DNA of 64,000 nucleotides from an uncultured bacterium (GCA_942493055.1 OW818680.1:4105902-4169901); one strand, 5' to 3'. Shown: positions 699-19,909, counted from the stretch's first letter. Notes: a model not told the origin generated them from the letters alone. Translations and numbers: made by a program.

Positions 699-2798
699 CT
701 AGACGTCTGCTGACCGGGTTGGGGGTTCTGGCTGGTAGAACCAGAACGCAAAGGAAGCATGATCGCCATAGAGTGTGATCCGTGGCCGGGGCTGCGTGAT
801 CGCCTCGGCGGGAATGATGAAGCTGATCTCGGAGAAGACGTCCTTCTCCTCCTGAATAAGGATCTCGTGGTAGCCAGCCTCCTTCTCGTCGACATGGATG
901 CGCAGTTTAAGCGGCGAGTTGAAACTGAAGCTATAGCCCCCTTGGCTGCCACCGTTACGCAGGCGGAGCGCGACGGTGCTTGTGGTCCGTAAGAGGACGC
1001 GCAGGGGCTGCCCGGGGGTGGCACGTATCGTCATGCTCTCGCTTCCGATAATGGCGCGTCCGACCTCTACAATGACGTTGGTCCCGACGTTCCCGGTCAG
1101 CAGCATGGGATGATAGTGGGCTCTATAAAAGCGGCTGAATTCGGAATAGGCGCAGCGTTTCTCGTCTTCGAGGTACCCGATATCCAGGCGGTCGACCTCT
1201 TTCCAGCCTTGCAGGGTTTTCTGGGAGGCAACTTCGAGCGGCTGGATGCTGCGCTCGAGCGTGGTCCAGTCGGCCTTTGCGGTGAAGAGGGAGTCAAGCG
1301 TGATCGGAATTTTCGTGGTATAGAAGACATTGGTTCTGGACGTGACCCACGAAGCGATGACCGGATCGAGCAGCCAGTAGTCGAACTGGCACTCCTTCTG
1401 ATGCTTGATTTTTTCGAAATTGACGGCAACCTCTGTCTCGGGGACGAGGAAGTCCGGGGAGTAGATGCCGCAGAGATGCATCAAGCGGCGTCCAGGGATC
1501 GCGTAGGCTGGTGCGAGCAAGGTCCCCACGCTCGCCTTTTTGGGCAGCAGGGTGTCCAAGGTCTTCAGGGCTTCATACTCCTGGTTGGAGATCTGGCTGT
1601 TATAATCAAAGCAGCTGAGCATCCAGAAGGCGGTCATGCTCTGATACCCGAGGAGCGCCCATACGGGGAGGGATTTGAAGCGTGAGGCGACATGGATATG
1701 CCGCGTGAGCCAGGTGGCCCCCTCTGCGGAATAAATGAGCCAGACTGGGAAGACCCATGCCAGGTAACGGTCGACATTCGTGTTCTGCCAGCCACTGGTG
1801 GCGACGGCCCCCAAGGCGGCCAGCAGAGCGACAATCCACCAGAGCTCCTTCCACGCTAACGGCTTCAGCCACGGGCGGCGCAAGATGCCGGTCCAGGCAA
1901 AGAGGGCACCGAAGAGCGGCAAGAAGAAAAATTCGCGGGGTGGGGCCTCGGGGGATCCCAGAAAGAATTCGCGCAGCATCCGGACCGCATCTTTTGCGCT
2001 CAGGAAAACGGCCGGGAGCAGGTCGTATTGCTTGAAGTAGCCTTTATAAACGATCGAATGGAACTGGGCCCCGCCGGTGAGCCAGATATTAAAGAGCGGG
2101 ACGCCTATGGCTGAAAGCGTTCCGGCGGCAGCGATCGCCCACTCGGTCTTAGACGCGGCTTGGCGCCAGAAGAGGCGGCGCGCCAGGAGCATGATTGGGA
2201 ACAAGACCGCCAGTACGCTGCCTTCAGGTCTGCACCAGGGGGCCAGCACCAGCAAACAGGCGAATGTCTTTGTGCGTCCGGTCAGCAGGGCTGCAAAGAG
2301 TCCGGCGCTTACGGCCATGAAGAGTCCTGTGTCGGTCTGGCCGAGTGCGCCGATGGTGGCATGTCCGTTGAGTGCCAGGAGCAGGCACGCGACTCCGCGC
2401 GAAAGGGGGGTCTGGCAAAGGCGGGTGGCAATCAGCGCCCAGGAGAGGATAAAAAGAAGATAGAAGGCGGCGTTCAGCGCGAACCCGGCTGTGATCAGAT
2501 CGTCTCCGGTGGCGCCGAGAACGTAGGGGATGGCCAAGAGGAAGGGGTAGAGGTGAGAGGTGGTTCCGGTTGAGGGCTTGTCGCCGGGGGAGAAGATAAA
2601 AGGCTGTCCCTCAGCGATTTGCCGTGCGGCTTGACAATAGAGGATGGTGTCGGGCTGGGGCATGGCGACATGATTGGTGGGGGCGGCCATGGCGCCGACA
2701 AAGTAATAAGCCCCGATTTGGACCAGGCCGCAAAAAATCATCAGCTTGATCAATTGGGGGACAGGTAAAAGGAAAAAGGTATTCATGTTTACTTTCAT
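699..2798 (-). CDS. GT-C-fold membrane glycosyltransferase-like protein with a C-terminal soluble domain
   Basis: 699 aa with many TM segments. The first loop DTILYCQAARQIAEGQPFIFSPGDKPSTGTTSHLYPFLLA resembles the acidic first-loop motif of GT-C enzymes; also has a PWCRPEG motif. Confidence 0.65.
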   Translation of the reverse strand: MKVNMNTFFLLPVPQLIKLMIFCGLVQIGAYYFVGAMAAPTNHVAMPQPDTILYCQAARQIAEGQPFIFSPGDKPSTGTTSHLYPFLLAIPYVLGATGDDLITAGFALNAAFYLLFILSWALIATRLCQTPLSRGVACLLLALNGHATIGALGQTDTGLFMAVSAGLFAALLTGRTKTFACLLVLAPWCRPEGSVLAVLFPIMLLARRLFWRQAASKTEWAIAAAGTLSAIGVPLFNIWLTGGAQFHSIVYKGYFKQYDLLPAVFLSAKDAVRMLREFFLGSPEAPPREFFFLPLFGALFAWTGILRRPWLKPLAWKELWWIVALLAALGAVATSGWQNTNVDRYLAWVFPVWLIYSAEGATWLTRHIHVASRFKSLPVWALLGYQSMTAFWMLSCFDYNSQISNQEYEALKTLDTLLPKKASVGTLLAPAYAIPGRRLMHLCGIYSPDFLVPETEVAVNFEKIKHQKECQFDYWLLDPVIASWVTSRTNVFYTTKIPITLDSLFTAKADWTTLERSIQPLEVASQKTLQGWKEVDRLDIGYLEDEKRCAYSEFSRFYRAHYHPMLLTGNVGTNVIVEVGRAIIGSESMTIRATPGQPLRVLLRTTSTVALRLRNGGSQGGYSFSFNSPLKLRIHVDEKEAGYHEILIQEEKDVFSEISFIIPAEAITQPRPRITLYGDHASFAFWFYQPEPPTRSADV

Positions 2799-5101: not shown

Positions 5102-5121
5102 ATTTCTTTATCCCGTTGAAA

Positions 5122-7050
5122 ATGAAAGCCCTACCCATAGTTAAATTCTGGAACAGTGCACGCCTTCGCTTGGGCGTTTTAACGATACTTGCACTTGCCT
5201 GTCTGCTGCTTACTTTTGACTTGGGGGCTCATTGGGGGGCTCTTGAGCAGGATGCGGCCGTATGGATGACAGTCATTATTGCCATTGCGGGCATCGGCAC
5301 CCTCTTCATCATCCTGGTTTTCAGCCTGCAATCGCGGATGATCTTCGCGCCCTTGAGGCAAATAACGGAGGCGGTCAAGAAGGTGATGGGGGGGCACTAT
5401 CCGCCCGGGGGCTATCCCAAGCTCGCATGGGAGGGAAAAGACGAGTTTGGCTTGTTCGTGCAGAGCATCAACGAGATGGTTGCGAGTTTGTCCGAAAAGA
5501 CACAATCGCTGGCGGAGCAACGCGAATACCAGGCAGCCCTTCTGGCGAGCATCCCGGATTGTGTCTGCCTCTTTGATCGCGAGGCGAGGCTTGTTAAAAT
5601 GTATAAGCAGCCGGATCTGGTTTCTCCCATTCGCGGCGTGGTCGCCGGGGAATGTTTGATGGCCCCCTTTTTCTTGGAGCAGGACTGTGAACATCTTCAA
5701 GAGGCTATCGGGAAGACGTTTGGGACGGGGAAATCCCAGTTGGCGTTTGTCTCCTTGCGCGAGACTTCGGAAATGTTCCGTCATTTTGAGGTCCGAGCCT
5801 GCAAAATCAATGTGGAACACGCGCTGGTTGTGCTGAAGGATATCACGCGGGAGAAGCGAGAATCTGATCATAAGAAGCAGGTCGAAGGGCACATGGTACG
5901 GGTTGAGAAGATTGAAAGCTTGGGCACATTGGCGGCGGGGATTGCCCATGACGTGAACAGTATGTTGACGGTGATCCGTAATACGCTTGAGGTGACCTGG
6001 AAAGACCCTGTCAAGGAGGAGTTGGAAGGGATTCGGACGATTCTTCAGGCCGCTGAAAAAGGATCCCAGTTGACGCGGGAGTTGATGACGTATGCCGGCC
6101 AGAACCAGGTGAAGTTCAAGCGGTCAGATCCGAATGAAATCGTACTGGCCATGGAGAAGTTACTTCAGGGGGTGATGGCCTCCAATGTGATTCTCGATTT
6201 AGATTTGGGGGAGAATCTGCCCAAGGTGGATGCGGATCCGCATCAATTCTGGAAGGTCCTTCTCAATTTATTAAAGAATGCGTCAGAAGCCATGAACGGG
6301 TTACGGGGTGCGGTCCGGATTAGAACGTATGAGCTGAGGTTGACAGAGCACATCAAGCGCGACTTTTTCTGCACACACTCCTTAGCCTGTGAGCCAGGGG
6401 TTGTCTTCGAGATCGCCGATACAGGCGTCGGCATTCCCAAGGAGATCCTTAAACGCGTTTTCGAGCCGTTCTTCTCAACAAAATCATCTGGACGCGGGCT
6501 GGGGCTTGCAACGGCATTTGGCATTGTGGACACACACAATGGCGCCATCTCCATCGCCTCAGAGGTCGGCAAGGGCGCCACCTTCCGTATTTGGCTGCCT
6601 GTTTCGAAGATGGCGCCAACAGAGGAAGACCAGGACAAGGTGAGTGAGAGCGTCATCAGCGCCAAAAAGTCAACGTCTGAGCGATCATGCGTCTTGATTA
6701 TTGAAGATGACCGAGCAGTGTTGCAGACGACACGCATTCTTTTGAAGTCGCTCGGGATTGATTCGCTGGAAGCGGTCAGTAAGCGGGATGCAATAGGGGT
6801 CTTCGGGAAGAATTCGGACCGGATCAACCTCGTTTTTCTGGACGCAACCATTGATAATCTAGACAATGTCAAATTGTTGGGTTTGTTGCGCCAGCATAAC
6901 CCGGAGATACCCGTGGTGATTGTCTCCGGGTATAGCGAAAAACGGATCGCTCAGATGTTCGCTGCTCAGCCGTTTGAAGGGTTTCTCGGCAAGCCCTATA
7001 CGCGTGATCAACTCATTGCGGCCATTCGCCCGTTTGTCAGCTTGGGCTAA
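5122..7050 (+). CDS. Hybrid sensor histidine kinase (2 TM, HAMP, PAS-like, HisKA, HATPase_c, receiver)
   Basis: H box AHDVNSML, N box NLLKNASEAM, DTGVGI, FEPFFSTK, GRGLGL; receiver motifs IIEDD, FLD, GKPY. ATG at 5122 preferred over TTG at 5116. Confidence 0.95.
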   Translation: MKALPIVKFWNSARLRLGVLTILALACLLLTFDLGAHWGALEQDAAVWMTVIIAIAGIGTLFIILVFSLQSRMIFAPLRQITEAVKKVMGGHYPPGGYPKLAWEGKDEFGLFVQSINEMVASLSEKTQSLAEQREYQAALLASIPDCVCLFDREARLVKMYKQPDLVSPIRGVVAGECLMAPFFLEQDCEHLQEAIGKTFGTGKSQLAFVSLRETSEMFRHFEVRACKINVEHALVVLKDITREKRESDHKKQVEGHMVRVEKIESLGTLAAGIAHDVNSMLTVIRNTLEVTWKDPVKEELEGIRTILQAAEKGSQLTRELMTYAGQNQVKFKRSDPNEIVLAMEKLLQGVMASNVILDLDLGENLPKVDADPHQFWKVLLNLLKNASEAMNGLRGAVRIRTYELRLTEHIKRDFFCTHSLACEPGVVFEIADTGVGIPKEILKRVFEPFFSTKSSGRGLGLATAFGIVDTHNGAISIASEVGKGATFRIWLPVSKMAPTEEDQDKVSESVISAKKSTSERSCVLIIEDDRAVLQTTRILLKSLGIDSLEAVSKRDAIGVFGKNSDRINLVFLDATIDNLDNVKLLGLLRQHNPEIPVVIVSGYSEKRIAQMFAAQPFEGFLGKPYTRDQLIAAIRPFVSLG

Positions 7051-7894
7051 TTTTGGAGAAGAGGTGTTGCCAGCTCTTGGGGTGTGCCAGGAAAAAGTGG
7101 CAAAACCTGCCGGAACGGTCAAGGATCTCTCGCTTGAGCTCTTCGTTCATCGGGTTGAGGAGCGTGACGAGCAACTCATTTCCCATCAGTGCAAAAGGCA
7201 GGACCCCCTTCACCGTACAGAACAGATGGGGCAATGTCTGAAGGGCTGCAGGTGTTGGCTCGAAGAGCTCTACAGGGATGGGGGGGATGTTGCAGATGCG
7301 TTGCATCTTCTCCATGACCGGATCCGTATATTCCGGATGGTGTTCATCGAGGATTGCCAATGCGGAAACCAGCAACGGGGTGTCTGTGACGGGACGTTCC
7401 GTCAAGGCGTTCATGATATCCATGCAAAAGTCTTTGGGTAAGTATTCGTTGTCATGCCAGAACCAGACCAGATCCATTTCCGCAGAGGCCGAGGCGTGAC
7501 TGAGGGAGTGCACATCGGCGGGCCACTCTTTTGTAGGCTTTGCAGGCGTAAAAGCAGCCCCCGGTGCAGGGGGAGCGCCTGCTGCTGCGGTGTCGGATAC
7601 GTTGTCCAGTTCAGCGAGCGCGGCAACGCGTTCAATCGCCAGCATGGCAGGCATGAAATCATGGAACGCTTTTAAATGCTCGGCAATGGCCTTGGCATTC
7701 TTATAATCGCTTTCCATCAACAAGACATCGACAAGCCGGACCAGCACATCTCTGCGTTTGTCTCTTTGCTTAGTCTGTTCATACGCCACGGCAAGGAACT
7801 CTAAGGCTGTCCTGTCCTTGGGCATGGTCTCGAGCATACCTTCAAAAAAGGCAATAGCCTCTATCATTTTAGGGTCGACTTGCGCCATATTCAT
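7037..7894 (-). CDS. TPR-like N-terminus plus a stand-alone T2SSE_N (PilB/GspE N-terminal-like) domain, no ATPase
   Basis: Helical N-terminus ALEFLAVAYEQ; C-terminus PPIPVELFEPTPAALQTLP...KGVLPFALMGNELLVTLLNPMNEELKREI resembles the corresponding segment of the adjacent PilB. Confidence 0.6.
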   Translation of the reverse strand: MNMAQVDPKMIEAIAFFEGMLETMPKDRTALEFLAVAYEQTKQRDKRRDVLVRLVDVLLMESDYKNAKAIAEHLKAFHDFMPAMLAIERVAALAELDNVSDTAAAGAPPAPGAAFTPAKPTKEWPADVHSLSHASASAEMDLVWFWHDNEYLPKDFCMDIMNALTERPVTDTPLLVSALAILDEHHPEYTDPVMEKMQRICNIPPIPVELFEPTPAALQTLPHLFCTVKGVLPFALMGNELLVTLLNPMNEELKREILDRSGRFCHFFLAHPKSWQHLFSKISPS

Positions 7895-7991: not shown

Positions 7992-8007
7992 TGGCACGCG
8001 ATTTGCT
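7992..8007 (+). promoter_or_regulatory. sigma54 -24/-12 promoter of pilB-pilC
   Basis: TGGCACGCGATTTGCT matches the TGGCACG-N4-TTGC(A/T) consensus exactly. Confidence 0.7.
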
Positions 8008-9762: not shown

Positions 9763-10842
9763 ATGGCAACAGCGGTACGGCGTGTAAAGGTAGCAGGCGT
9801 CAAGCAGATTTTAAAAAAGGAACTCATTCCCTTTACCCGGCAGACAGCCAGTATGTTGAACGCGGGTATGTCAATCTTGGTTGCCGTGTGCACGCTGGAG
9901 GAACAGTGTGAACATCCAGGCTTTAAGGTTGTGCTGAAGAGTCTGCGCGAAAGCATTGAGGGGGGCGCGCCGGTTTCAGACGGGTTGCGGCAATTCCCGA
10001 AGATTTTTGATGAGATGTATGTGAATATGGTGGCCGCAGGTGAGAAGAGCGGCCAGTTTGCAGGTGTTCTGAAACGGCTTGCGGCCATGCTCGACTCCTC
10101 GGCTCGCCTGATCCGTAAGGTGAAGTCAGCCATGACCTATCCGACCGTGATCCTGGGTATGGCTCTGGTGATTGCAGCTGGCTTGATTACCTTTGTCGTC
10201 CCTGTTTTTGCAGAAATGTTCTCGGGGTTTGGACAGGCCCTTCCAGGCCCGACGCAGTTTCTCGTGGATATCAGCAGTTTCGTCCGGACACGATGGTATG
10301 TGGTCATCGGTGTTGTCGGATTATCAATTTTCATCTTTAAACAGTGGGTCACAACCCCGGTGGGCCGTTTGAAATTCGACCAGTTCAAATTAAAGCTGCC
10401 TATTTTTGGCCCCTTGCTGCAAAAAGTCGCTGTTTCGCGCTTCTGCCGTCTCTTCGCACAGATGTTAACGAGCGGCGTCCCCATTTTGGACTCCATGGAT
10501 ATTGTGGGAAAATCCCTGGGCAACAAGGTGATGGAGGAGGCTATTCTGTCGGCCCGCACAAGTGTTGAACAAGGAAACTTGTTGAGCGTGGCTCTGGAGG
10601 GGAAGGCCTGCCTGCCGATCCTGATGATCCGCATGATCGCCGCAGGCGAAAAGAGCGGTCGCGTGGATGAAATGCTGGAGAGCGTTGCCAATACCTACGA
10701 TGATGAAGTCGAGAGCCTTCTGGCAACCTTGACCTCCTTGATGGAGCCTTTCCTGATGGTTTTTCTGGGCATTATTATCGGTGGTATTGTGATCGCGATG
10801 TTCTTGCCGATCTTCAAGCTGGGCTCTGTTGTCGGAGGCTAA
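9763..10842 (+). CDS. pilC: Inner-membrane platform protein PilC/GspF
   Basis: FTRQTASMLNAG, AGEKSG, AMTYP, SLMEPFLMVFLG...AMFLPIFKL; two T2SSF halves. Confidence 0.93.
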   Translation: MATAVRRVKVAGVKQILKKELIPFTRQTASMLNAGMSILVAVCTLEEQCEHPGFKVVLKSLRESIEGGAPVSDGLRQFPKIFDEMYVNMVAAGEKSGQFAGVLKRLAAMLDSSARLIRKVKSAMTYPTVILGMALVIAAGLITFVVPVFAEMFSGFGQALPGPTQFLVDISSFVRTRWYVVIGVVGLSIFIFKQWVTTPVGRLKFDQFKLKLPIFGPLLQKVAVSRFCRLFAQMLTSGVPILDSMDIVGKSLGNKVMEEAILSARTSVEQGNLLSVALEGKACLPILMIRMIAAGEKSGRVDEMLESVANTYDDEVESLLATLTSLMEPFLMVFLGIIIGGIVIAMFLPIFKLGSVVGG

Positions 10843-10906
10843 TAATCGTTGTTGTGTCTCCTCTTTAGCTTTGGTATACTTGAGGCGATCTTTTTTAAGG
10901 ACTATC

Positions 10907-12313
10907 ATGATGCCTAAATTATTAGTTGTAGATGATGAATCGCGCATTTTATTGCTGTTGCAGAGCCTTTTGAAGGCCAATGGCTTTGACGTTTTGACAG
11001 CCAATGCAGGTCCTGCTGCACTCGAGTGCTTTAAAAAAGAGGCGATTGATGTGGTGGTGAGCGATCTTCGCATGGTTCCGATGGACGGCATGGCGCTTTT
11101 CAGAGAGATCAAGAAAATCAAGCCCCAGGTCCCCTTTGTGCTCCTTACGGCGTATTCTTCGGTTGAAACAGCTGTCGAAGCGACAAAAGCAGGCGTCTTT
11201 GACTATATGACCAAGCCGTTCAAGGTCGACGAGATGCTGGCGACCGTGCGCCGGGCGGTCGAACATGCCAAGAACAATAGTGTTGTCGCAACCGTGAACG
11301 GTGACACCCCTCTGCGCTATCAATTTGAGAATCTGATTGCGACGAATCCTGCCATGCTGGATGTCTGTAAAAAGATCGAGCGTGTCGCGCCGACCGCCGC
11401 AACCATTCTGATTAACGGGGAGAGCGGTACCGGCAAGGAGGTCATCGCCCGCACCCTCCACAAGGCGAGCCTGCGTAAGGATAAGCCATGGGTTGCTGTT
11501 AATTGCGCCTCGATTCCTGAGCATCTTATGGAGTCCGAGATGTTTGGCCATGTCAAAGGTTCCTTTACAGGCGCAGTGTCCGATAAAGAGGGCCTTTTTG
11601 AAGTTGCCAATGGCGGCACCTTGTTCCTGGACGAGATCTCCTCATTGCCCTTGGCGCTACAGGGGAAATTGTTGCGGGTTTTGCAGGAAAAGGAGATGCG
11701 TCGCGTGGGCGGAACTAAAAATATACCCGTAGATGTCCGTGTGATTGCCGCGAGCAACACCAGCTTGGAGCAGTTGGTCCAACAGGGCGCATTTCGTCCT
11801 GACCTGTATTATCGGTTTGCGGTCATTACGCTGGATATTCCTGCTTTAAGAGACCGGCCTGAGGATATTTTGCCCTTGGCAAGGCATTTTCTGCTTTCGG
11901 AAATGCGGAATGCTCCAGTCCAGACGACCCTTTCGAAAGAGGCTGAAGAGCTCTTAGTCGCCTATCGGTGGCCGGGCAATGTACGTGAACTTGAGAATGC
12001 GATCAAGCATGCGGTGACCTTCCTTATGGAGGGCGAGGATATCACCCCTGACCTGCTGCCACCCCGTGTCGTCAGGGAGGCCACGCTGAATGCAAACCAT
12101 CTCCGTCCCGCCCACACGGGCGCCGGTGATAACTCGGATATGGCGAGCGGTTCGTTGAGAAGCTTTCTCAAGGCGAAAGAGAAGGAGTATATGGAGCAGA
12201 TCCTGGCCTCTACGCAGGGTGACAAGGAGAAAGCTGCCCAGACGCTCCAAGTGAGTTTGGCAACGCTCTATCGTAAGCTTTCCGATGAAGATACCGTTGC
12301 TTTGCCCAAGTAA
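10907..12313 (+). CDS. sigma54-dependent response regulator (receiver-AAA+-HTH), PilR/NtrC-like
   Basis: VVDDE, SDLRM, KPF; GESGTGKE, EMFGHVKGSFTGA, LFLDE, WPGNVRELEN; HTH LQVSLATLYRKL. Start moved from 10829 to ATG at 10907. Confidence 0.93.
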   Translation: MMPKLLVVDDESRILLLLQSLLKANGFDVLTANAGPAALECFKKEAIDVVVSDLRMVPMDGMALFREIKKIKPQVPFVLLTAYSSVETAVEATKAGVFDYMTKPFKVDEMLATVRRAVEHAKNNSVVATVNGDTPLRYQFENLIATNPAMLDVCKKIERVAPTAATILINGESGTGKEVIARTLHKASLRKDKPWVAVNCASIPEHLMESEMFGHVKGSFTGAVSDKEGLFEVANGGTLFLDEISSLPLALQGKLLRVLQEKEMRRVGGTKNIPVDVRVIAASNTSLEQLVQQGAFRPDLYYRFAVITLDIPALRDRPEDILPLARHFLLSEMRNAPVQTTLSKEAEELLVAYRWPGNVRELENAIKHAVTFLMEGEDITPDLLPPRVVREATLNANHLRPAHTGAGDNSDMASGSLRSFLKAKEKEYMEQILASTQGDKEKAAQTLQVSLATLYRKLSDEDTVALPK

Positions 12314-12437: not shown

Positions 12438-12453
12438 TGGCACGCTAGATGCT
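12438..12453 (+). promoter_or_regulatory. sigma54 -24/-12 promoter of pilA
   Basis: TGGCACGCTAGATGCT (GG-N10-GC). Confidence 0.75.
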
Positions 12454-13018: not shown

Positions 13019-13134
13019 TTTTTTTACCGCAAAGAACGCATAGAACTCAGAGAAAAGAGAAGTATCTCTGATAGCCCAAACATAGCATTTAGAAGTTGAT
13101 CTTTGCGATCTTTGTGTTCTTTGCGGTAAAAAAA
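13019..13134. repeat. Intergenic inverted repeat with degenerate internal repeats (REP/MITE-like)
   Basis: Perfect 19-bp arms TTTTTTTACCGCAAAGAAC (13019-13037) / GTTCTTTGCGGTAAAAAAA (13116-13134), between convergent genes. Confidence 0.8.
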
Positions 13135-13151: not shown

Positions 13152-14261
13152 CTACACATACGTCTCTTTGATGATACTTGTATCCGGGGTAAACGATGCA
13201 GGTTCCCCGAAAAGCGTGTGCATATATTTGATGAGCTGGTTGACGCGGTCAACGCTTTCAAGGGCTAAATCGAGAAACTGTGTCTGCGTTTCATTCAGCG
13301 AGCCAATCTGGCCTTGGCGCAGGACTTCGATCACGCTGTTCGTGACTGTGAGCGGTTGTGCGATCTCTTGTGTCAGCTCCGCAAAGCGGCTCATATACTC
13401 TGCATGTGAGAACTTAGGCGCTTTCGGCTTCTTCCGTTTGGGCCGGGTGCCGGGGACTGCAGGGGGGAGGGCCTCCTCCTGGCCGAGCAACGATGCAATC
13501 CGCTCCTTAGCGGGTTCTGTTGATGTCCGTAACGTATCTCGGATGGAGCGGAGGGTCTCAACCATTTTCTCGCTATGCGGCTCATTTTTTTCTGCAACAA
13601 GCTGAGAGACCTCGGCAAAAAGAGAGCCCAGTTCTGTCTGAACGCGTTTACGCCGGAGGCGTGCCTGCGTGGGTGCATGGTGCTCAGGATCAATGGCGGG
13701 CTGTGCAGCCATCCCCTCCTCCAGACCTTCGGGTTTCGGTTTGCGGGCGCGTTTCGGACGTTTGACCGGGGTAGGGGGGGGCGGTTCCTCGTCTTTGGGC
13801 GGGATGGATTGCGGATTCTTTGTGCCGACGCGCTCATAGACGAAATGAACAAGGCTGACGCCCTTCATGCCGGAGTTTTTCAAGACCTCTTCAAAGCCGC
13901 CCATCTCCTGTACTTTTCCAGGGGGTTTTCCAAGGCAGGAGAGGAGCGTCATGAACCCGTCCTGCAGGAGGTCCTTGGAAAAAATGAGTCCCGGCAATTT
14001 ATGAAGGAGCATCTTCTCCTTAAGATTGCGCGAGGACATCATATCAATACCATCAATTTCCCCATTGACCGCGAGTTTGTCGCCCTGAAGGGAAAACTCA
14101 ACGGTGTCGTGAGCCTCCGCAAGGGGTTTTAGGCGGTTAAAGAAATCGATGGCCTGCTGCTGGATCACTTTGTGCGTAATGCCATAAATCGCCACTTGGT
14201 TGACAAGCAGCCCCAAGTCACGAACAAGGAGGATGGCATTACTGAAGGGAATTTTTGTCAT
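13152..14261 (-). CDS. Uncharacterised protein ending in a pseudo-HisKA domain (His replaced by Gln), no HATPase
   Basis: C-terminus FAELTQEIAQPLTVTNSVIEVLRQGQIGSLNETQTQFLDLALESVDRVNQLIKY aligns to the HisKA pattern HE.xxPL with Q at the His position; Pro/Lys-rich linker. Confidence 0.65.
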   Translation of the reverse strand: MTKIPFSNAILLVRDLGLLVNQVAIYGITHKVIQQQAIDFFNRLKPLAEAHDTVEFSLQGDKLAVNGEIDGIDMMSSRNLKEKMLLHKLPGLIFSKDLLQDGFMTLLSCLGKPPGKVQEMGGFEEVLKNSGMKGVSLVHFVYERVGTKNPQSIPPKDEEPPPPTPVKRPKRARKPKPEGLEEGMAAQPAIDPEHHAPTQARLRRKRVQTELGSLFAEVSQLVAEKNEPHSEKMVETLRSIRDTLRTSTEPAKERIASLLGQEEALPPAVPGTRPKRKKPKAPKFSHAEYMSRFAELTQEIAQPLTVTNSVIEVLRQGQIGSLNETQTQFLDLALESVDRVNQLIKYMHTLFGEPASFTPDTSIIKETYV

Positions 14262-14356
14262 GAGAAAAAATATGATTAGAACACTGTCAGTTCACGAGAG
14301 CTTCTCTCCGGACACCTCCTGCTCATCACAATCAGGTGTCCAGAGTGCTCGTCTCA

Positions 14357-18398: not shown

Positions 18399-19466
18399 CT
18401 ATTCAAGGGGGTTTTCTTCCGCGCATCGGCTGTTCATCTTCACCAATTGTTCGCGCATGTCGAGTATCGTGTCATAACAGAGCGCAATCATCTCTTTGCG
18501 CTGGGCGTCATCAATGCCAGACTCCAGCTTCAGCAGTTCGATGCTGGTGAGCAGGACCGTGGTGGGTTGCGTGAGCGCATGGCAAATAGAGCCCAGGCTC
18601 TCCAGGACGGTACGGTTCCGGGCGGCCTGCTGCTCTGCAATCTCCATGCGCCGGCGCTCGGCAATGTCCCGTATCGACAGCACCATGCCCGTAAGCTCGT
18701 TGTCTGCGTTGATGTCGGGCACGGCAGAAAGGCTGAAGCAGCAGCTCCGCTGCCCCATGATCACGCTGTGTTCGCCAGACCAGCACTCGCGTTTAGCAAT
18801 CTGTTCCAGGAGAGGCTCAATCACGGTCTCCGCGTCAAACCAGGCCGTCAGCGGTTTTCCGAGGATGGCGGCCTCGTCACCCTCTGCCAGCAACTTGGTC
18901 ATCATGCGGTTCGAATAGATGATAATCCCCTGCATGTTGACAATGCCGATACCGGAATCGGTATTGTCCATGGCGTGATAAGCCGAATTGAGGTTCTGCT
19001 CGGTCTGCCAACGGGACTGAATATTTTTGATCAGGCAGCAGAACCGGTCGGTCTCTCCTAATCCGTTCCCGGTAATCACCAGCTCGACAGCGTTCATCTC
19101 GCCGCTTTTCAGCATGCCAAACGCCTGGATCCGCATGTGCTGGCCCCGCCGGACAGTCTCCCGGATCGTGGCCAGAAGCATCTCGTTCAGTCCGGCGATC
19201 ACCATGGGGAGCGTCAATTGTGAAAGCTCCTCTTCCGAGTACCCGAAAAACTCAAGGGCGCGATTGTTCCAGGTCAGGATATGCCCGTCCGGGTCTGTCA
19301 GCAGAATGGCGTCATAGGCGCGTTCAAATAAAAAACGGTAGTCAATCTGACTTAACAGGTCCTGGGCCCGGTTTAATCGTTCACTGCGCTGCAAAGGCTT
19401 GATATCGCATGCGAGTGTACGGATGTCAATTTTGATGGTCCGTGATGATAAGTTTGACGTATTCAT
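18399..19466 (-). CDS. Cytoplasmic PAS-PAS-HisKA protein lacking the HATPase_c domain
   Basis: PAS motifs DAILLTDPDGHILTWNNRALEFFGY and SGIGIVNMQGIIIYSN; terminal ICHALTQPTTVLLTSIELL, then stop. Confidence 0.8.
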   Translation of the reverse strand: MNTSNLSSRTIKIDIRTLACDIKPLQRSERLNRAQDLLSQIDYRFLFERAYDAILLTDPDGHILTWNNRALEFFGYSEEELSQLTLPMVIAGLNEMLLATIRETVRRGQHMRIQAFGMLKSGEMNAVELVITGNGLGETDRFCCLIKNIQSRWQTEQNLNSAYHAMDNTDSGIGIVNMQGIIIYSNRMMTKLLAEGDEAAILGKPLTAWFDAETVIEPLLEQIAKRECWSGEHSVIMGQRSCCFSLSAVPDINADNELTGMVLSIRDIAERRRMEIAEQQAARNRTVLESLGSICHALTQPTTVLLTSIELLKLESGIDDAQRKEMIALCYDTILDMREQLVKMNSRCAEENPLE

Positions 19467-19482: not shown

Positions 19483-19498
19483 AGCATAAAATATGCCA
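19483..19498 (-). promoter_or_regulatory. sigma54 promoter of the PAS-HisKA / minor-pilin cassette 1 operon
   Basis: Minus strand reads TGGCATATTTTATGCT (GG-N10-GC), 18 nt before the ATG at 19466. Confidence 0.7.
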
Positions 19499-19563
19499 GT
19501 GGCGTATGGGCTGATATTCCATCCGGGTTTGGCTGTTCTAGGCTGAAAACGGTCCGCCCTGCT

Positions 19564-19597
19564 TCTCATTTATGCGAACAAGGTTTCATGTTTGCGA
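19564..19597 (-). promoter_or_regulatory. Tandem UAS matching the pilA enhancer motif
   Basis: Minus strand reads TCGCA-AACA-TGAAA (19597-19584) and TCGCA-TAAA-TGAGA (19577-19564), 20 bp apart. Confidence 0.65.
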
Positions 19598-19627
19598 AAG
19601 AGGCGCGGCTTGCCTGTAACTTCAAAC

Positions 19628-19888: not shown

Positions 19889-19909
19889 TGGCATGAAATA
19901 TGCTATTAT
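19889..19909 (+). promoter_or_regulatory. Candidate sigma54 promoter overlapping an extended -10, for the pilMNOPQ-like operon
   Basis: TGGCATGAAATATGCT (GG-N10-GC) continues as TGCTATTAT; ATG at 19919. Confidence 0.6.

Follow-up and report, generated by a model that had tools for sequence, protein, structure and literature searches.

Only a few pseudo-histidine kinases are known, DivL, RocA and PsmA among them, and in these most of the kinase body is kept. Among hybrid kinases, CckA needs ChpT, a transferase of the DHp type, DHp being the helix pair through which a kinase dimerises and which holds its phospho-acceptor. Kinase regulation by a DHp heterodimer is known from RetS-GacS in Pseudomonas aeruginosa and from ChrS (with a CA frameshift) and HrrS in Corynebacterium glutamicum, and EnvZ domain A and NtrB H139N are reportedly phosphatase-only HisKA forms, EnvZ even without an ATPase domain. 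In Caulobacter crescentus, the pseudo-histidine kinase DivL, with Tyr in place of His, docks phosphorylated DivK (DivK~P) and controls the CckA hybrid kinase (PMC4211667), and incomplete kinases lacking one core domain have been catalogued generally (bioRxiv 10.64898/2026.02.27.708494). The phosphatases CheZ, CheX and CheC, which are dedicated to response regulators, reach from a helix into the active site of the receiver with an acidic residue and, one helical turn away, an amide, either Gln or Asn (PMC3510030). Here we describe a soluble protein encoded in the type IV pilus cluster of an uncultured bacterium, within a stretch of 64,000 nucleotides (GCA_942493055.1 OW818680.1:4105902-4169901, referred to as the window), that ends in a HisKA helix pair with Gln at the position of the phospho-acceptor His and with no ATPase domain after it. 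The family to which it belongs is referred to as the Gln-DHp family.

Gln at the phospho-acceptor position of a HisKA helix pair

An initial reading of the window (the sequence-only reading) had suggested that the protein carries a HisKA helix pair at its C-terminus, that a CAA codon takes the place of the His codon and that no ATPase domain follows; each of these suggestions held up. The Pfam model HisKA (PF00512), the one significant match in that library, covered residues 293-347 with 29.2 bits, above the curated cut-off of 26.9 (E 9.6e-7), and matched all 40 aligned relatives (best E 4.4e-8), whereas NCBIfam produced only faint kinase matches, over the same stretch. The two-helix hairpin expected of HisKA was present in the AlphaFold2 (AF2) model of the protein. 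The sequence FAELTQEIAQPLTV...LDLALESVDRVNQLI was confirmed in the protein, and its H-box reads A-E-L-T-Q298-E-I-A-Q-P-L-T-V. In a BLASTP alignment with P0111, a genuine 792-aa kinase that has its N-terminal domain in common with the protein, LTQEIAQPL lay over VTHELRTPL, and the alignment continued without a gap through the loop and helix 2. Gln298 therefore sits on the phospho-acceptor His, the residue expected of HisKA domains and of DHp-type transferases. The resemblance of the H-box to the NtrB/PilS type (QEIAQPL compared to HEIKNPL) was considered as a pointer to PilR and was rejected because the loop and helix 2 are equally PhoR/WalK-like.

No match to HATPase_c was found in the protein at E<=1 in Pfam or NCBIfam, and the protein ends 19 residues past helix 2. 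Only 225 bases separate its stop codon from the pilA terminator, and these are non-coding and contain a long hairpin, so that no decayed ATPase domain lies hidden there. The place where a kinase would run on into the ATPase domain is occupied by a conserved C-terminal tail. At the level of sequence it is established that the protein has no canonical phosphorylation site and no kinase-domain ATP binding.

Conservation within the protein was highest in the helix pair. In helix 1, 11 of 30 residues are invariant, and the mean fraction of the majority residue in the alignment was 0.76, compared to 0.60 in the N-terminal domain and 0.30 in the first linker. The invariant residues of helix 1 form an exposed face, A294-E-L-x-Q298-E299-x-x-Q302-P303-L-T305, and those of helix 2 are R339-V-N-Q-L343. 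Conserved positions include solvent-facing ones, and in true kinases the same face holds the catalytic and receiver-docking residues; this suggests a functional surface rather than mere dimerisation.

To follow the substitution through the family, 5.8 billion proteins were searched for homologues, which returned 41 relatives with 33-88% identity, and a scan of species-representative genomes provided 27 further loci, whose labels read Kiritimatiellia or, wrongly, neighbouring groups. His was not found at position 298 in any of the homologues: 26 genome loci and 40 aligned proteins all have Gln298, as do more than 100 remote members of the family. Residues Q298, E299, Q302 and P303, and likewise L304 and T305, were invariant from 88% down to 28% identity. 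Among the sampled genomes of the phylum, 36 of 301 carry the family, with the reading frame intact in every genome; the genome studied here holds a single copy.

Remote members were collected with a profile of the N-terminal domain, which was run against 1.84 billion cluster representatives and matched 972 of them at E<=1e-3 and 194 at E<=1e-10. The motif AE[ILV]xQE[ILV]xQP, about 76 residues from the C-terminus, was present in 83 of the 148 best remote relatives; among those 148, one had Glu at the His position and none had His. A relaxed motif scan added about 20 further members with Gln, and most of the full-length N-domain sequences that were inspected bear the Gln motif. Family members combine an N-terminal domain with Y-G-x-x-H-x-V, a helix pair with AE[ILV]xQE[ILV]xQP and a tail with G-x-P...P-D...Y, and the protein has all three. 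As judged from these alignments, the Gln is ancient, fixed and selected, and is not a product of decay. The N-terminal domain also heads true kinases with PAS, HisKA (with His) and HATPase, which argues that the family descends from a real kinase; the family lost the ATPase domain and exchanged His for Gln long ago. No description of the Gln-DHp family, of its N-terminal domain or of its pairing with the PAS-DHp protein described below was found in the literature, and the automatic names that its members carry ("histidine kinase" or "phospho-acceptor domain-containing protein") are functionally wrong.

The Gln-DHp family reaches well beyond pilus loci. In two contexts, L028 and L037, a member of about 550 aa immediately precedes a PAS-HisKA-HATPase-REC hybrid kinase; a receiver protein comes after the hybrid kinase in L028, and the contig of L037 breaks off within the kinase gene. 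A general adjacency of this subfamily to a hybrid kinase was considered and rejected, as it is true of only 2 of the 10 contexts sampled. Other remote members are orphans. In one genus, relatives of 550-600 aa lie right after the genes for glycogen synthase and branching enzyme (L043 6601-8283, L045 5784-7445 and L050 5868-7670), a setting that hints at a non-pilus role in that lineage.

Domain layout, the PAS-PAS protein and the pilus cluster

The start MTKIP is common to all homologues, and a hydropathy scan of the protein encoded at 13152-14261 found no membrane segment. In order, the protein consists of the N-terminal domain, a disordered basic and proline-rich linker, a helical hairpin, a second linker, the His-less DHp hairpin and the conserved tail. 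In a full-length AF2 model (monomer, from the alignment of 40 sequences), residues 1-140 were predicted with a predicted local distance difference test (pLDDT) score >90 and comprise two long helices, a small sheet and further helices. The Pro/Lys-rich linker (147-191) was disordered, with pLDDT <50. Helices 196-223 and 230-258 form the hairpin 196-258, which is followed by the second basic linker, and the DHp helices (286-315 and 324-350) were predicted with moderate confidence (pLDDT about 60-70).

The sequence-only reading had likened the N-terminus to helical domains found ahead of signalling modules. The N-terminus is indeed a conserved domain, but the AF2 model is alpha/beta rather than helical; predicted alone, it reached pLDDT 88 and a predicted template modelling (TM) score of 0.83. 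His30 of its Y-G-x-x-H-x-V motif is invariant across the N-domain superfamily, and E55, N66 and N79 are further invariant residues of the domain. No Pfam or NCBIfam model matches the domain, and Foldseek comparison of its model with PDB and with the viral models of BFVD gave nothing below E 0.4. Taken with the full-length model against PDB, the Foldseek searches gave no match at E <0.1, and none at TM >0.3 for the N-terminal domain. Searches of PDB sequences with the single protein, a full-length profile and an N-domain profile likewise gave no credible relative; the only low E-values came from alignments of about 30-65 residues with designed repeat proteins and with a periplasmic binding protein. 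A minority of N-domain proteins (P0111, P0128 and P0129) are genuine kinases of the form N-domain/PAS/HisKA(His)/HATPase. The N-terminal domain appears to be an undescribed input-type (sensor-like) domain with a sizeable family.

The operon whose last gene is the Gln-DHp gene opens with the gene of a PAS-PAS protein with a DHp-like end, to which the sequence-only reading had proposed a link; gene order supports this proposal. The two genes are adjacent or co-operonic in all loci that have both on one contig, and they adjoin directly in eight genomes (L017, L021, L023, L025, L033, L036, G263 and G290). Direct adjacency where the minor pilins lie elsewhere indicates that the conserved unit is a pair of ATPase-less DHp proteins. 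The DHp of the PAS protein reads C295-H296-A-L-T-Q300-P301, and its orthologues follow C-H-(A/S/T)-(L/I)-(G/T)-Q-P-x-T-V-L-L-T, with an invariant Cys before the His, a residue one position after the His (H+1) that is never acidic, and Gln at the fourth position (H+4). The His is kept in 15 of 16 orthologues and is Leu (CTT) in L005. Gln at H+4 is common to the PAS and Gln-DHp families and occurs in 1 of 21 of the true H-boxes in this genome. In a profile comparison with hhalign, His296 of the PAS family lay over Gln298, although the match was weak (E 0.023). The PAS protein may be a ChpT-like transferase or a partner of the Gln-DHp protein.

Pfam and NCBIfam matches identify a type IV pilus cluster in the window. 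It begins with a Ser/Thr kinase, a membrane hybrid kinase, an MshEN-only protein, pilB, pilC, a PilR-type activator and pilA, continues with an operon on the opposite strand (the PAS-PAS-DHp protein, a minor pilin, a 760-aa pilin, a GspK-like protein and the Gln-DHp protein), and ends with pilM-like genes and a secretin. Synteny of the PAS-DHp gene, the minor pilins, pilA, PilR, pilBC and the hybrid kinase with the Gln-DHp gene is kept in 27 loci. The receiver of PilR, at about residues 27-150 of that protein, has the canonical DD/D/T/K residues, as read from its sequence, and is a candidate docking site of the Gln-DHp protein. The hybrid kinase (H-box AHDVNSML) is the only complete kinase of the cluster, and no PilS-type kinase lies beside PilR in the cluster. 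The genome has two Hpt domains, both inside large proteins, and no free-standing Hpt.

Exact matches to TGGCAY-N5-WTGCW, the -24/-12 pattern of sigma54 promoters, occur four times in the window, compared to 0.5 expected by chance. Sites of the form TCGCA-N4-TGAGA lie upstream of the pilA and PAS-operon promoters, those of the PAS operon at about 19560-19600. Of 15 related loci, 12 have a -24/-12 element ahead of the PAS gene, and no convincing element lies directly before the Gln-DHp gene, which is therefore most likely co-transcribed from the sigma54 promoter of the PAS gene under control of PilR and sigma54. The positions of these features are given in the table.

Features of the Gln-DHp gene and of its cluster, with positions counted from the first nucleotide of the window
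Feature	Position	Strand	Basis
Whole gene, soluble protein	13152..14261	-	open reading frame of 369 aa; no transmembrane segment; 41 homologues
N-terminal alpha/beta domain, residues 1-145, motif Y26-G27-x-x-H30-x-V	13827..14261	-	AF2 and profile search
DHp / HisKA helix pair, residues 286-350	13212..13404	-	Pfam HisKA 29.2 bits; relatives match 40/40
CAA codon, Gln298, position of the phospho-acceptor His	13368..13370	-	aligned to His of VTHELRTPL and His296 of the PAS partner
Conserved C-terminal tail, G352-x-P354-x4-P359-D...Y368	13155..13211	-	G352, P354, P359 and Y368 invariant; tail also in remote members
Long hairpin, 35-nt arms, directly 3' of the Gln-DHp stop	13019..13134	-	inverted repeat, 86% complementary; RNA fold -43.8 kcal/mol, z -4.5
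PAS-PAS protein, DHp-like end, first gene of operon	18399..19466	-	PAS matches; kinase-family matches through residue ~325; no ATPase domain
Sigma54-type -24/-12 promoter TGGCATATTTTATGCT of the operon ending with the Gln-DHp gene	19483..19498	-	exact motif match
Exact sigma54 promoters before pilB, pilA, the PAS operon and the pilM-like operon	7992-8007, 12438-12453, 19483-19498, 19889-19904	+, +, -, +	exact motif match
PilR-like sigma54 activator (REC-AAA-HTH)	10829..12313	+	Pfam Response_reg, Sigma54_activat, HTH_8; syntenic in relatives
CckA-like membrane hybrid kinase (two transmembrane segments, HAMP, HisKA, HATPase, REC)	5116..7050	+	Pfam; NCBIfam best match CckA; syntenic

The long hairpin beyond the stop codon is probably an operon-end terminator or stabiliser. 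The GspK-like gene and the start of the Gln-DHp gene are 95 nt apart, and in this gap an 8-bp stem, GGACACCT-N16-AGGTGTCC, lies at 14310-14341 on the minus strand; no T-run follows it, and it might affect how the last cistron is translated or processed. The protein had been described as closing the minor-pilin operon, which is correct for its place as the last gene here; it does not describe the conserved unit, which is the pair formed with the PAS protein. Nine related loci have one more gene after the Gln-DHp gene, for a 699-aa protein that has a few hydrophobic segments and that nothing in Pfam, NCBIfam or PDB matched; in those loci (including L007 11140-13203, L012 10517-12574, L016, L017, L019, L025, L026 and L027) it lies about 15-160 nt downstream of the Gln-DHp gene and in the same orientation. 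The copy in this genome is at the other end of the cluster (699-2798, minus strand). The stand-alone MshEN-only protein, which corresponds to the N-terminus of PilB, is encoded at 7037-7894 on the minus strand, divergent from pilB, and its synteny is kept in related loci.

A putative adaptor that cannot be phosphorylated, and its rivals

We tentatively favor a reading, drawn from the conserved residues and the gene order, in which the protein would be a cytoplasmic, kinase-derived adaptor that docks onto the receiver of PilR or of the hybrid kinase, or joins the PAS protein, in either case feeding back to reduce the phosphorylation of PilR; we consider this quite possible, if somewhat short of probable. 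The sequence-only reading had proposed a decoy, a phosphatase or a heterodimer partner, any of which may apply. The protein would dimerise through its DHp, either as a homodimer or with the PAS partner, and the exposed Q298-E299-x-x-Q302-P303 face would meet the receiver of PilR or that of the hybrid kinase. Phosphorylation of PilR would thereby be lowered or buffered, the protein acting as a dedicated phosphatase or simply occupying the docking site, while the N-terminal domain would set its activity as an input. The phosphatase route would use a Glu and an amide side chain, as in the H-E-x-x-N/T of HisKA and as in CheX and CheZ. PilR and sigma54 would drive the protein's own operon, which would close a feedback loop on the expression of pilin and of the pilus machine. 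The protein is probably a modulator, and not the driver, of the phosphorylation signal by which the type IV pilus genes are turned on.

The residues bear on the phosphatase route in both directions. In the HisKA motif H-E/D-x-x-T/N, phosphatase activity alone depends on the H+4 residue, and kinase activity alone on the acid at H+1; CrdS and EnvZ can act as phosphatases even without the His (PMC3510030). The protein has Glu at H+1 and Pro at H+5, and Gln302 is an amide like Asn, one methylene longer. Several points weigh against the adaptor. HisKA phosphatase activity has been shown with Thr or Asn at H+4, whereas the residue here is invariably Gln302, and the phosphatase activity of PleC needs its His (PMC3510030). 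The pLDDT of the DHp in the AF2 model was only 60-70, and a disordered linker joins the DHp to the rest of the protein, in contrast to the continuous signalling helix of sensor kinases. The closest DHp in the same genome matched at only E 9e-5, so that a partner cannot be named by similarity. Finally, 8 of the 10 sampled contexts of the 550-aa subfamily have glycogen or housekeeping genes in place of two-component neighbours; a phosphorelay role is thus not forced by gene order across the family.

Where the adaptor would need the PAS protein only as one of several possible partners, an obligate heterodimer would make the two proteins a single hub. The Gln-DHp and the PAS-PAS-DHp(His) proteins would together build a mixed four-helix bundle that has only one His, and this bundle would stand in for an Hpt and pass phosphate from the receiver of the hybrid kinase to PilR; the Gln subunit would provide the Glu that is missing at H+1 of the PAS subunit, along with the input of its N-terminal domain. 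The conserved pairing of the genes is consistent with this, as are the shared and otherwise rare Gln at H+4 and the Ala, Ser or Thr at H+1 of the PAS protein, compared to an invariant Glu in the Gln-DHp protein. The two DHp segments align with one small gap, in the inter-helix loop. The genome's lack of a free-standing Hpt would leave such a role vacant, and the CckA-like character of the hybrid kinase, given the dependence of CckA on ChpT, also fits. However, the hhalign match reached a probability of only 2%, one PAS orthologue has Leu for His, and many genomes with a Gln-DHp protein are without a close PAS-DHp orthologue. We regard the obligate heterodimer as somewhat unlikely.

The protein may instead stand outside any phosphorelay, its DHp-like hairpin serving only to dimerise an accessory of the pilus machine or a general regulator that binds, for example, PilB, PilM, the MshEN protein or, through the N-terminal domain, a small ligand. 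Its gene lies amid pilus structural genes, and the family co-occurs with the large minor pilin (19/25 genomes compared to 17/276; Fisher 1.9e-15, uncorrected for phylogeny). Most of the 550-aa relatives are orphans beside housekeeping genes, and the strongly conserved C-terminal tail and the N-terminal domain would be free for other partners. What this leaves unexplained is that invariance centres on the former catalytic and receiver-docking face (Q-E-x-x-Q-P and T305) and not on the core alone; the consistent pairing with another DHp protein and the relatives that adjoin a hybrid kinase and a receiver protein also argue against it, and we judge it unlikely. A decayed or mis-sequenced histidine kinase gene, with a recent loss of His and a truncated ATPase domain, is next to impossible: CAA is a single third-position change from CAC or CAT, but the homologue survey refutes sequencing error and pseudogene alike through the invariance of Gln in all relatives and remote members, the frame is intact in each of the 36 genomes, the DHp is the most strongly conserved part of the protein and no ATPase remnant lies downstream.

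The adaptor reading can be widened to the whole family. The Gln-DHp proteins would then be a large natural family of dedicated, kinase-derived receiver phosphatases or gatekeepers, with Gln now at both the former phospho-His position and H+4, under a new sensor fold marked by Y-G-x-x-H-x-V, and in Kiritimatiellia a one-His heterodimer with the PAS protein would replace Hpt between the CckA-like kinase and PilR. This wider version is quite doubtful; if true, the one-His heterodimer would be a new wiring of the sigma54 control of type IV pili.

Comparison with known systems

Among the DHp-type transferases, ChpT and Spo0B resemble the protein in being soluble and in being built on a kinase DHp without kinase activity; their DHp forms a four-helix bundle and they act between a hybrid kinase or receiver and a regulator, as the Gln-DHp protein would do. 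Both have a phosphorylatable His and a degenerate ATPase-like domain, whereas the Gln-DHp protein has neither, and the closer analogue of ChpT is the neighbouring PAS-PAS-DHp(His) protein. In the case of RetS and ChrS, both are membrane sensors that keep the His; RetS also keeps its ATPase and receiver domains, and the ChrS variant arose in the laboratory, whereas the His-less and ATPase-less state of the Gln-DHp protein is ancient and fixed. Foldseek comparison of its DHp part with the RetS/GacS co-complex 7n0e gave a weak match (69 columns, root-mean-square deviation 2.6, E 2.6).

The phosphatases are similar at the level of residues. CrdS H371A has a HisKA DHp that dephosphorylates its regulator without the His (PMC3510030), and the Gln-DHp protein has E299, Q302 and P303 in the corresponding motif. 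CrdS H371A, EnvZ domain A and NtrB H139N are engineered or truncated forms with Thr or Asn at H+4, whereas the Gln-DHp protein is natural and has Gln there. The spacing of E299-x-x-Q302 also recalls the acidic residue and amide of CheZ, CheX and CheC, which is a lead at the level of the motif only, as the folds and ancestry are unrelated.

The Gln-DHp protein makes a case for asking how bacteria regulate phosphorelays by kinase-derived parts that cannot be phosphorylated. It also makes a case for studying the control of type IV pilus genes in the little-studied Planctomycetes-Verrucomicrobia-Chlamydiae (PVC) group, where PilR is found here without an adjacent PilS-type kinase. DivL is likewise kinase-derived, with its phospho-acceptor His replaced, and the cluster of the Gln-DHp protein also has a CckA-like hybrid kinase. 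DivL, however, retains an ATPase-like domain, has multiple PAS domains and is membrane-anchored, whereas the Gln-DHp protein is soluble, lacks the ATPase-like fold kept in DivL-type pseudo-kinases and replaces the His with Gln rather than Tyr; its N-terminal domain is unrelated, and the two sequences are related only through HisKA. Compared to such pseudo-kinases, the Gln-DHp protein is a stripped-down form reduced to the helix pair, with no His and no ATPase domain, in a family that is ancient, conserved and numerous.

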